DNA from: an uncultured Chloroflexia bacterium | Lineage (GTDB): Bacteria; Chloroflexota; Limnocylindria; Limnocylindrales; CSP1-4 | DNA length: 64,000 nucleotides | Assembly: GCA_963763775.1 (NCBI GenBank) | Contig: CAVXPZ010000003.1 | Span: 416,001-480,000, forward strand | Reading direction: 5' to 3' | In this document: positions 38,057 through 40,678 of the stretch, piece by piece | How the letters are laid out: each line of letters begins with the position of its first letter | Numbering within the stretch: position 1 is the stretch's first letter | Position numbers and translations under genes: made by a program | The notes under the pieces: generated by a model | What the model saw: only the letters and a program-made list of their open reading frames with translations | What the model was told of the DNA's origin: nothing | Databases searched by the model: none

Positions 38057-40678
38057 CTACTCGTGCCCACCGGGCAGGAGGGCCGACCCGTGGCCGTTCC
38101 CGTTCCCATGGGCGTGGCCGTGGCCGTTGCCGTTGGCGGCGACGCCCGACGGGATCCCGGCGACGGCCGCCGGGAGGACGGGGAGCATCCGGCTCGGGTC
38201 GAAGTGGCGGCCCTCGGCCGCGGCGGCGTCGGCCCACCCGCGTTCGCGGCGGATGTACGTGACCTCGGTCTCGCGGTCGATGGCGGCGATCGCCATGAGG
38301 TCGATCGTCGGCTCGGCGCGGCTCGTGTGCGCCAGCTCGATGTCGCCGCCGTCGCGCAGCGCGTCGTACGGGCACGCGTCCACGCAGATGCCGCAGAGGA
38401 TGCAGCGGCTCTCGTCGACCTCGTACTTCTGGAGCACGCGCGGCTTGGGCATGAGCGCGCCGGTCGGGCACGTCTCGGCGCAGCGACCGCACGACACGCA
38501 CGGGGTGTCGTTGAGGCTCATGTCGAGCGGGGTCGTGACGAGCGTGTCGAAGCCGATCCGCATGAAGTCGTAGCACGCGGCGCCGACCACCTCCGAGCAG
38601 ACCTGGGCGCAGCGGCCGCAGTCGATGCAGCGGGACGGCTCGCGGAGGATGAACGCGTGCGAGTCGTCGCGGACGTAGTCGTGGTTGATCCCGGTGAACC
38701 GGTTCTCGGTCACGCTTCGATAGCCGGCGCCCTGGTGGAACTGCGGCTCGAGCGTCTTGAGCGTCGTGCCGTACTCGATGCCGAGCCGTCGCAGGTCGCA
38801 GAACCCGATGGCCTCGCAGGTGCACTGCAGACAGCGCGTGGACTCCGCGACGGCCGCCTCGCGCGTGTACGGCAGCTCGTACTCCATGTAGTTGTGGTTG
38901 CGCTCCTCGGCCTCGAGCGCGGTCAGCCGGTAGCGCGGCTCCTTGACCTCCGCGGTGAACGGGACGATCGAGAGGAACTCGGGCTGCGGCTCGGCGAGCG
39001 TCTGGCGGGTCCGGATGGCCCCGAGGTCGAGCCCCTGGAGGAACGCGTCCACGGCGTACGCGGCGCGCCGGCCCTCGGCGATGGCCTGGACCACGGTCGC
39101 CGCGCCGATGCGCACGTCGCCGGTGCCGAAGACGCCGGCCCGGCCGGTCTCGAACGTCACCGCGTCCGCCTTGAGCCGGCGCTGCTTCGTGGCCTCCGGC
39201 CCCTCCGATCCAGGGCCGATCCAGGTGAGGTCCGGGCCCTGGCCGATGGCGAGGAGCACGCGGTCGCACGGGACGATGAACTCGGTGTCGGGCGCGGGCT
39301 CCGGCCGCCGCCGGCCCGAGGCGTCGGGCGCCCCGAGCTGCATCCGGATGAACTCGACGCCCGTCACGTTGCCGGCATCGTCCGTGACGACGCGGGTCGG
39401 GCCGGCCTGGAAGATGGCGGTCACGCCTTCCTCGATGGCCTCGTGGACCTCGCCCGACGCCGGCATGTCCTTCATGTCGCGCCGGTAGACGAGCGTGACC
39501 TCGCTGGCGCCCTGGCGGACGGACGTCCGCGAGCAGTCCATCGACGTGAACCCGCCGCCGATGACGACGACGCGCTTGCCCGCGTGGTCCGGATAGGGGA
39601 GGCCGAGCGTGGCGGTCCGCAGGTACTCGAGGCCGTCGAGGACCTCGGCGGCGTCCTCGCCCGGGATGCCCAGCTTGTTCGTGTCGTAGCAGCCGATGGC
39701 GACGACGACGGCATCGAAGCCCTGGTTCGTCAGGTCGTCGAGCGTGAACTCGGTACCGAGGCCCGCGTTGCAGACCATCTTGCCGCCGAGCCGGGTCACG
39801 GACTCGTACTCGGCCTCGAGGACCTCGACCTTGGGCAGGCGGTACTGCGGGATGCCGTAGCGGAGCATCCCGCCCGGGGCCGGGTCGCGCTCGAAGACGG
39901 TCACGTCGTGGCCCGACAGCAGCAGGTAGAAGGCCGCGGCCATCCCGGCCGGGCCGGAGCCGATGACCGCCGCGCGACGGCCCGTCGGCGCCTGGCGCTC
40001 GAACGGCAGCGGCGGATCGACGCCCTCGTCGAGCATCGCCTTGAGGACCTGGTCGCCCGCGTAGCGGTGGCTGTCGCGGATGGCGATCGCCTCGTCGACC
40101 TCGTCGCGCCGGCAGTGCTCCTCGCAGGGTGCCGGGCACACGCGACCCAGCACGGAGGGGAACGGGATCGTGCGCTTGAAGATCCGGGCGCTCTCGCGCC
40201 AGTCGGCCTCGGCGTTGGCCTTGAGGAAGCCCGGGATGTCGATGTGGCTCGGGCACTTGTTCTGGCAGGGCGGCAGGCAGTAGGCGTTGTGGTCGCTGAA
40301 GATCAGCTCGAGGTTCGTCCGGCGGAGGCGGCGGACCTCCTCGGTCTGGGTCTGGACCTTCATCTCGGGCTCGCAGACGCGCGAGCACGAGATCGGCGGG
40401 TTGTCCTCGCCCTCCACCTCGACGACGCACATCCGGCAGGCTCCGAAGCCCGGCAGCTTGGGCTCGTAGCACAGCGTCGGGATCTCGATCCCGTTGTCGC
40501 GGCAGACCTCGAGGATCGTCTGGCCCTCGAAGCCCTCGACGACACGGCCGTCGACCTCGATGCGGATCCGCGGCGACGACTGCGGACGCTGCGGCGAGCG
40601 CGTCTCGAGGAGCCGGTCGGCCAGCGATTCCGGCTCCGGCGTCAGGCGGCTGTCGGGGCGCGTCAGGAGGTCAGCCAT
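38057..40678 (-). CDS. NuoG-position subunit: [2Fe-2S] + GltD/NfnB-like FAD/NAD(P)H domain + 2x[4Fe-4S] + C-terminal half of NuoI (StnC-like)
   Basis: [65 protein letters not shown], and a third motif [19 protein letters not shown]. Confidence 0.88.

Follow-up and report, generated by a model that had tools for sequence, protein, structure and literature searches.

Complex I is regarded as an NADH enzyme, and its 11-subunit relatives as ferredoxin or F420H2 enzymes; from which donor, then, would a complex I draw electrons if its NuoG were replaced by a protein of a different build? This question is raised by a 64,000-nucleotide stretch of DNA from an uncultured Chloroflexia bacterium of the class Limnocylindria (contig CAVXPZ010000003.1 of assembly GCA_963763775.1, positions 416,001 to 480,000), which as a whole we call the window and to whose positions all coordinates below refer. 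The genes of its complex I (nuo) operon all lie on the minus strand, and at the place expected for nuoG, between a NuoF-like gene and nuoJ, stands the gene of a protein of 873 amino acids (P0002), here called G'. We call the NuoF-like subunit F' and a 228-amino-acid protein encoded beside it (P0124) IE. Our analysis makes it reasonably probable that IE, F' and G' together form a non-bifurcating input head that replaces NuoE, NuoF and NuoG in the only complex I of this genome. This head would descend from a Bfu/Nfn-type (NfnABC/StnABC-like) enzyme, be tied in by a split NuoI and feed quinone, with NADPH entering at the flavin adenine dinucleotide (FAD) of G' and NADH probably at the flavin mononucleotide (FMN) of F'.

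A GltD-like module within a NuoG-like scaffold

G' is encoded by a single intact frame of 873 residues on the minus strand, and the plus strand of 38057-40678 reads as Arg/Ala/Gly-rich junk. An earlier reading, made from the sequence alone, had the boundaries of the gene right, as well as all the motifs that it quoted (LVYRR and RCLQCTC among them), with the qualification that these belong to the minus strand. A longer open reading frame at 38057-41245, considered as a fusion of a NuoE part to G', was ruled out, its 189 extra residues being Arg/Pro-rich junk that overlaps F'.

Pfam matches above cut-off in G' are Fer2_4 (residues 37-112), Fer4_20 (134-213), Pyr_redox_2 (236-536) and Fer4 (752-775), the four domains that the sequence-only reading had expected a domain scan to find; NADH-G_4Fe-4S_3 (119-135, covering only positions 1-17 of a profile of 40) and Fer4_Nqo3 (677-742) match below cut-off. 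No molybdopterin-type domain, as in the C-terminal part of NuoG, was found in G' by the Pfam scan. In NCBIfam, the NuoG family model TIGR01973 gives G' 91 bits, far below its cut-off of 470.05, and the best family is PRK12814 with 532.7 bits against a cut-off of 916. Pfam and NCBIfam therefore agree with the earlier description of G' as a NuoG/HydA-type 2Fe-2S domain joined to a GltD/NfnB-like module and devoid of a molybdopterin-like C-terminus.

The N-terminal cluster set of NuoG (2Fe-2S, His-ligated 4Fe-4S and 4Fe-4S) is present in G', with its cysteines invariant in the alignment. The GltD-like insert sits after H130-x3-C134 of the His-ligated cluster motif, the remainder of which (C616, C619, C621, C627) follows the insert. 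Three CxxCxxCxxxC motifs are found downstream of the insert. Two of them form a HydA-type 2x[4Fe-4S] pair (C684-C694 and C727-C737, invariant) and the third (759-769) is an orphan; the ferredoxin pair that had been read after RCLQCTC..C is thus one motif short, and this third motif matches the second half of NuoI.

Among solved structures, the best match of G' is NfnA of the Caldicellulosiruptor saccharolyticus NfnABC (9bov_A, 1178 amino acids), which aligns with residues 38-769 (E 1e-159), followed by StnC of Sporomusa ovata (8oh5_C, 1172 amino acids; residues 37-772, E 7.3e-139) and an archaeal NfnA (9n5u_A, E 1.6e-134). The alignments to 9bov_A and 8oh5_C are continuous and place a GltD/NfnL-like FAD/NADPH domain within a NuoG/HydA-like iron-sulphur (Fe-S) scaffold, whereas canonical NuoG chains align only to approximately the first 100 residues of G'. 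The second Rossmann fold has the form GGG-x-T...VT-x-x-YRR in G' as in the two solved NADPH-using homologues; its VT-x-x-YRR stretch aligns with VTVLYRRTREEMPA in 9bov_A and with VTIIYRRTIDEMPA in 8oh5_C, and the alignment extends through VT..YRR..MPA. G' terminates about 100 residues past the Fe-S pair and lacks the FdhF/NuoG-like C-terminal domain (873 versus 1172-1178 amino acids). At the level of sequence, these data confirm the StnC/NfnA-like layout that had been proposed for G'. The location of G', this likeness, the missing NuoG C-terminus and the YRR stretch together make an NADPH-linked complex I a fair inference.

The very end of G' is a His/Gly/Asn-rich tail (38060-38146, minus strand) that varies in length in Limnocylindria and is absent from the sister lineage described below; that it binds metal is a guess.

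NuoI pieces at both ends of a putative input head

A genome-wide search with the NuoI model TIGR01971 (121 positions) retrieved no match above its cut-off of 113.05 bits, and hence no whole nuoI, in the source genome, which is 87% complete. Positions 1-62 of the model matched at 42480-42668, within IE, and positions 71-113 at 38312-38440, within the tail of G' (residues 747-789), so that complementary pieces in two proteins cover the model. Pairwise alignment to a canonical Chloroflexota NuoI (L185, 212 amino acids) agrees: its residues 3-67 are 43% identical to residues 7-71 of IE (E 1e-14), and its residues 82-123 are 40% identical to residues 744-785 of G' (E 1e-7). Solved NuoI chains behave likewise, with residues 9-73 of IE aligning to their first half (for example residues 6-68 of 2fug_9) and the G' tail aligning past the cluster motif (for example to residues 93-146 of 8qby_I).

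The NuoI N-half of IE comprises residues 1-75 and carries one CxxCxxCxxxCP. It is fused to a stretch (residues 115-187) that aligns with the N-terminal helical domain of NuoE, HydC and NfnC chains; the 2Fe-2S cysteines of NuoE are absent, and the Pfam model for NuoE, 2Fe-2S_thioredx, is matched only over positions 2-64 of its 145. NuoI therefore appears to be split between the first subunit of the head, IE, and the last, G'. Since a two-cluster ferredoxin fold needs two motifs and each of these proteins has one orphan motif, the simplest reading is that the halves would pair into one two-cluster ferredoxin domain.

F' points in the same direction as G'. Its intact orthologue from a short-read locus (L004) matches the cores, and only the cores, of HydB, NfnB and StnB at E 1e-100 to 1e-103 (NfnB 4.7e-103, StnB 1.1e-101), and NuoF chains more weakly (1e-66 to 1e-81). 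Pfam finds in it Complex1_51K and NADH_4Fe-4S only, with neither N- nor C-terminal extra Fe-S domains. Because F' is closest to the HydB/NfnB/StnB cores, the whole head probably derives from a Bfu/Nfn-type trimer. That NuoG has been replaced, as the earlier reading held, is in keeping with the position of G' but too narrow, since one and the same Bfu/Nfn-type module also supplied the NuoE-like and NuoF-like subunits.

Limnocylindria relatives of G' are very common in public metagenomes: our searches gave 563 related stretches in genome contigs and, at the protein level, 7970 related proteins. The best 80 loci were kept for the Limnocylindria counts (lineage 1, the lineage of the window); they are labelled as Limnocylindria/Limnocylindrales or unclassified Chloroflexota metagenome-assembled genomes (MAGs), a few having other labels. 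G' is 82-92% identical in these 80 loci, which places the observation far beyond chance. The order H-IE-F-G-J was found in 62 of them, and the other 18 hold parts of it, likewise ordered. In 68/68 Limnocylindria loci IE has a single Fe-S motif, and in 0/68 does it have the NuoE 2Fe-2S cysteine motifs. YRR is present in G' in 80/80, and the C-terminal NuoI motif in all 75 loci that reach the end of the protein (five with AV instead of AL). Over 12 short-read loci, mean pairwise identity is highest for G' (0.865), followed by NuoD (0.831), F' (0.677) and NuoJ (0.668).

The next relatives at 50% clustering are 35-45% identical to G' and mostly 1000-1260 amino acids long; among them P0139 (816 amino acids) has the NuoI-type tail. 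A metagenome scan with P0139 as query yielded 76 loci of a sister lineage (lineage 2), 12 of which were inspected closely and show A-C-D-H-IE-F-G-J-K-L-(M)-N or the part of it that the contig allows. H-IE-F-G-J appears in 27 of the 76, the remaining 49 being subsets in the same order, and the NuoI motif in the G' tail is present in 72/72. The sister-lineage IE has a complete NuoE domain in 32/36 cases (Pfam positions 4-144 of 145), and its F has an N-terminal thioredoxin-like 2Fe-2S domain, the motifs NADEGDPGAF and ESCGKCVPC in their canonical form and a C-terminal 2x4Fe-4S domain. Judged on its sequence by published criteria, namely C1 of BfuC and the extra Fe-S sites of BfuB (relevant passages of PMC9304861 and PMC11829005), the sister-lineage head is a full Bfu-type core. 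G' has YRR in 57 of the 76 loci, YRG in 3 and CRN in 2; the other 14 were unmatched by the search pattern. In some members (P0139; L093 and L094) the NADPH fold of G' is degraded, with GDGFAA for GGGFT and no YRR, and such members may have lost the use of NADPH.

The sister lineage finds a best match of only 47% identity in a 301-genome sample of Chloroflexota (overall tallies include the unpublished genomes G227, G173 and G038). Every sampled genome of the window's class was matched (coded families f1 15/15, f2 2/2 and f3 15/15), and full-length tailed relatives also occur in other Chloroflexota families, with matches at E <= 1e-50 in f8 (5/5), f23 (20/21) and f27 (6/6). Five genomes of these other families were inspected, and in 5/5 IE-F-G forms a stand-alone trio of the reduced type. 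These genomes (5/5) hold two nuoH and two nuoJ, with one whole nuoI beside one of each, and the second nuoH belongs to a nuoA-C-D-H cluster that has no nuoI at its end; the number of nuoH thus equals that of whole plus split NuoI in 5/5. In an unrooted maximum-likelihood tree, 18 tailed G' proteins lie on one side of a 100/100 branch, opposite 14 long StnC/FDH-like proteins whose rows were trimmed to their first 800 residues, and the two reduced groups join weakly (82/59).

Two side observations concern relatives of G'. In one locus (L178; G233:C1:903000-922000, 6881-8923 and 9496-11745, minus strand) a single IE-F pair is followed by two G' genes in tandem; the second matches from about residue 104 of G', without most or all of the 2Fe-2S domain, and its open frame begins slightly earlier. 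Five GltD-bearing relatives of approximately 810-850 amino acids (P0135, P0160, P0168, P0182 and P0237) all end ...DHCARL in an FdhF-like domain. Such ends suggest that the predicted genes were truncated at a selenocysteine TGA; the complete proteins would then be genuine NADPH-linked formate dehydrogenases.

In the window, nuoA, B, C, D, H, J, K, L, M and N, that is, the membrane arm and quinone module of complex I, are all present and in order, the whole reading nuoA-B-C-D-H-IE-F'-G'-J-K-L-M-N (Table 1). As the source genome has one copy each of nuoA, B, C, D and J, this operon is the only complex I found there. The ATG of F' overlaps the IE stop codon by one base, and at 42702-42863 (minus strand) the last piece of nuoH runs into IE without an intervening stop codon. 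The two genes are separate in 66/67 Limnocylindria and 34/34 sister-lineage loci, and the lone flagged case (L001) resembles a junk frame.

Table 1. Genes of the nuo operon and regions of G' in the window
Feature	Position	Strand	Remarks
nuoA	46617..46985	-	
nuoB	45883..46749	-	Longest open reading frame; true start probably further in
nuoC	45332..45928	-	
nuoD	44096..45316	-	
nuoH	42714..44057	-	Read through frame changes near 43672, 43100 and 42988; 3' end approximate
IE (P0124, 228 amino acids)	42018..42701	-	NuoI N-half fused to NuoE-like helical domain
F', NuoF/HydB-core-like flavoprotein	40687..42015	-	Three frame changes: near 41554 and twice in 41094-41157
G' (P0002), NfnA/StnC-like, 873 amino acids	38057..40678	-	Stop codon included; open frame, Pfam, NCBIfam, PDB alignments
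G' residues 37-112, NuoG/HydA-type [2Fe-2S] domain	40343..40570	-	Fer2_4; C70, C81, C84 and C98 invariant
G' residues 134-550, GltD/NfnB-like insert: two 4Fe-4S motifs, FAD fold, NADPH fold (GGGFT...VYRR)	39029..40279	-	Fer4_20, Pyr_redox_2, NfnA/StnC alignment
G' residues 616-745, rest of split His-cluster motif and HydA-type 2x[4Fe-4S] pair	38444..38833	-	Invariant Cys; Fer4_Nqo3 below cut-off; 9bov_A/8oh5_C alignment
G' residues 747-803, C-terminal half of NuoI (second CxxCxxCxxxCP and NuoI-type stretch after it)	38270..38440	-	TIGR01971, 8qby_I, canonical NuoI
nuoJ	37457..38050	-	
nuoK	37149..37460	-	
nuoL	35157..37152	-	One frame change near 36125
nuoM	33463..35160	-	
nuoN	31964..33466	-	

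Directly upstream of nuoA and on the same strand lies the gene of a 399-amino-acid Methyltransf_28 (PF02636) protein (47601-48800, minus strand, E 2e-54). A homologue stands just upstream of nuoA in 46 of the 51 Limnocylindria loci with at least 1.5 kilobases of upstream sequence, as against 0/20 sister-lineage loci; PF02636 is the family of MidA/NDUFAF7, a methyltransferase that acts in complex I assembly in eukaryotes. Downstream of nuoN are genes for a CorA-like Mg2+ transporter (28239-29600, plus strand), a weak sortase-domain protein (29597-30382, minus strand) and an AhpC/TSA-Redoxin protein (30373-31077, plus strand). Outside the window the genome has a second flavoprotein module (G000:C4:641150-644111), not beside nuo genes, in which a fused NuoE-NuoF protein, whose NADESEPGTF and ESCGQCVPC motifs are canonical, precedes a short, frame-broken gene resembling the N-terminal part of NuoG/FdhA.

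Proposed electron path and competing explanations

The path that we propose, with its direction, the cofactors presumed to be bound and the contacts between subunits, is a prediction from the architecture, homology, conservation, gene order and copy number described above. NADPH would be oxidised at the FAD of the GltD-like insert of G', and its electrons would pass through the two GltD-type 4Fe-4S clusters to the His-ligated cluster and on to the 4Fe-4S pair, from which the rebuilt NuoI clusters (N6a and N6b) would hand them to N2 in NuoB and so to quinone. F' would keep a flavin and a nucleotide pocket and probably take NADH, whose electrons would enter at the F' flavin and move by a three-Cys N3-type cluster to the 2Fe-2S cluster. 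A branch that is a dead end in Nfn/Stn would serve here as the exit to NuoI. The corresponding A2-A4-A5 branch of NfnA is described as a non-functional remnant (in passages of PMC11829005), and it is the likely exit in G' because the NuoI motif begins 21 residues past the last Cys of the HydA-type pair.

Several observations weigh against this scheme. The operon contains approximately 7 single-base frame changes, as a result of which nuoL, F' and nuoH are each read in more than one frame. The NADPH specificity of G' is predicted solely from likeness to solved homologues, in which YRR would mark binding of the 2'-phosphate, and so NADPH. Canonical complex I has NuoI next to the His-ligated cluster N5, and in G' the N5-type motif is where the GltD insert sits, so that the geometry proposed for the exit path is tentative. 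If the NADH and NADPH sites were joined by an uncoupled Fe-S wire, the two pools would equilibrate, which cells normally avoid. F' has NGYGADP at the flavin site where HydB has NADEGDPG, and in its N3-type (N3/B1) motif, CGKTIPC, Thr replaces the second Cys, leaving three of four. Given these altered motifs F' may not oxidise NADH, and it is among the least conserved subunits (0.677). Finally, an AlphaFold2 model of G' built from 25 sequences has a mean predicted local distance difference test score of 53.6, with residues 615-815 below 50 and all Fe-S regions poor.

The short N3 motif and altered flavin site of F', and its conservation far below that of G' (0.677 versus 0.865), would be expected if NADPH were the only input and F', having lost NADH oxidation, were kept as a scaffold or as a flavin/Fe-S relay; the complex would then be a dedicated proton-pumping NADPH:quinone oxidoreductase, and its single nucleotide site would spare the cell a short circuit between the NADH and NADPH pools. 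We consider this unlikely, since the Gly-rich loop, ANGYGADP, GAYMLGEET, NVQT, CGKTIPC and SALCDHE are invariant in 12/12 short-read loci, and the loop, GEET, NVQT and the three remaining N3 cysteines suggest a working pocket rather than a scaffold. Electrons could also run in reverse, proton-motive force driving them from quinol to NADP+ and so supplying NADPH for biosynthesis. Complex I is reversible, as is well established, and the FAD/NADPH module is described as working both ways in Nfn and Stn (passages of PMC10482914). With only one complex I in the genome, however, a reverse-running enzyme would leave the forward respiration of reduced nucleotides without a coupled entry, which makes such a role rather improbable.

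The sequence-only reading had also allowed for a transhydrogenase or bifurcating module coupled to the pump, and an enzyme of the Nuo-Bfu type, bifurcating or confurcating, would couple NAD(P)H and ferredoxin to quinone reduction. The derivation of the head from Bfu-type enzymes, the full cofactor set retained by the sister lineage in the same operon and the prediction of a 14-subunit Nuo-Bfu in other phyla (Schut et al., in passages of PMC9304861) all speak for it. In the lineage of the window this idea is not supported, given the absence of the NuoE-like 2Fe-2S domain and of the extra HydB-type Fe-S domains. The bifurcation site is described as [B1-FMN-C1] (passages of PMC11829005), with the BfuC 2Fe-2S cluster and the extra BfuB Fe-S sites forming part of it or flanking it (passages of PMC11829005 and PMC9304861); with the C1 cysteines in 0/68 IE and F' devoid of extra Fe-S domains, the site cannot form. 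No bifurcation is therefore expected in Limnocylindria, and we give the bifurcating reading very little credence. Equally hard to credit is a soluble transhydrogenase-like enzyme that merely happens to be encoded inside the nuo operon, next to an 11-subunit membrane complex with another donor, in spite of the stand-alone trios of 5/5 other Chloroflexota genomes and the solubility of the closest solved relatives. It would leave the operon without any NuoI; each end of the trio has a conserved NuoI half; the genomes with stand-alone trios also hold a second nuoH and nuoJ set that lacks nuoI; and the FdhF-like domain required for StnC assembly (according to passages of PMC10482914) is missing. 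An input head built into complex I, taking NADPH and probably NADH, is the reading that we retain.

The frame changes could in principle be real mutations in nuoH, F' and nuoL of an operon decaying in this genome, as approximately 7 of them fall in the operon while the reading frames of rpoB and rpoC are unbroken. This is most improbable. Near-identical contigs from other public runs have one base fewer at 41554, 42988, 43102 and 43669/43674, at or beside the sites in F' and nuoH. Each reading-frame piece is still 66-84% identical to an intact orthologue, and nuoH, F' and nuoL are all intact in four short-read MAG loci (L004, L037, L039 and L055). A frame-broken gene also exists outside the operon (G000:C4, approximately 643130-644111), and decay would strike the genome's only complex I. 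A run of at least 4 identical bases lies near only 1 of 5 frame-change sites, which does not settle the cause. Taken together, the frame changes are very probably consensus errors of the assembly, and the family-level conclusions are independent of their cause. None of the public sequencing runs contained more than 0.15 of the sampled words, and no RNA run was listed.

More broadly, we tentatively raise the possibility that several Chloroflexota lineages run an unrecognised class of complex I, in which a transhydrogenase-type head is spliced in by splitting NuoI over two polypeptides and which would act as a proton-pumping NADPH:quinone oxidoreductase or as an energy-linked connection between NADH, NADPH and quinone; a sister-lineage head with the full bifurcating cofactors would wire NADH, NADPH, ferredoxin and quinone into one pump. 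Were a complex I to contain its own FAD/NADPH site, the nucleotide pool used for anabolism would be tied directly to proton-motive force, and a split-and-fused NuoI would offer a testable case of how a membrane pump permanently takes in a soluble redox module. Three arrangements, namely an operon with the full Bfu-type head, an operon with the reduced head and a reduced head encoded as a separate trio, provide a natural series for studying such integration.

The proposed head among known systems

NfnABC of C. saccharolyticus (PDB 9BOV/9BP5; Bfu family) shares with the window the 2Fe-2S domain, the His-cluster motif interrupted by an NfnL/GltD-like FAD domain and the 2x4Fe-4S pair; F' matches the core of NfnB, and residues 118-186 of IE match the N-terminal domain of NfnC. 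It differs in that the Fdh/NuoG-like C-terminal domain of NfnA is replaced in G' by the NuoI C-half, and the A2-A4 side branch, as described in the passages on NfnA, runs in G' straight into the NuoI motif. In IE the NuoI N-half is present and the C1 2Fe-2S domain missing, F' has neither the thioredoxin-like N-domain nor the C-terminal domain, and the window genes lie inside a nuo operon. In StnABC of S. ovata (PDB 8OH5/8OH9), StnC likewise joins a NuoG-like to a GltD-like part, the latter (residues 102-565) containing FAD, NADPH and two 4Fe-4S clusters, and StnB matches F' (StnC as described in passages of PMC10482914). StnC is longer (1172 amino acids) and has an FdhF-like C-terminal domain that builds the tetramer and is absent from G'. 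Stn is soluble and bifurcating, whereas in the lineage of the window neither the 2Fe-2S cluster of StnA nor the additional clusters of StnB are present.

Compared with canonical complex I (such as Nqo1-3 and Nqo9 of Thermus thermophilus; PDB 2FUG and later structures), the window has A, B, C, D, H and J-N in the usual relative order and recognisable NuoG N-terminal clusters and NuoF core. It lacks a whole NuoI, the NuoG C-terminal domain and the N1a-type 2Fe-2S cluster, and adds an FAD/NADPH domain, with the input-head genes placed between nuoH and nuoJ. The 11-subunit relatives (Fpo, NDH-1) have the gene order nuoABCDHIJKLMN, and the placement of H and I ahead of J suggests that the input module was added to a core of 11 subunits. 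These relatives, unlike the window, have a complete NuoI, and their input module either has its genes elsewhere or docks without being fused to NuoI.

The Nfn and Stn structures and the prediction of Nuo-Bfu are known from the passages cited; within the literature searched, an Nfn-type FAD/NADPH head attached through a NuoI split over two fused polypeptides is apparently new. The listings, abstracts and passages covered yielded no GltD-bearing NuoG substitute, Nfn-type FAD/NADPH head or split NuoI in a complex I. The 14-subunit Nuo-Bfu predicted for Deferribacteres, Proteobacteria, Planctomycetes and Nitrospirae (Schut et al. 2022, passages of PMC9304861) resembles our system in that a BfuABC-type module encoded mid nuo cluster replaces the NuoEFG head, and the sister lineage resembles it more than the reduced form of the window does. 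The passages covered of that paper mention no GltD/NADPH domain, split NuoI or Chloroflexi. In mbx-like operons a gltD-related flavoprotein is described as replacing NuoI (Degli Esposti 2015, passages of PMC4758237), an arrangement different from the split NuoI of the window. Many Chloroflexi genomes are described as having 13 of the 14 complex I genes and lacking only nuoG (Spero et al. 2015, passages of PMC4453560), and a head of the IE-F'-G' kind may explain them.

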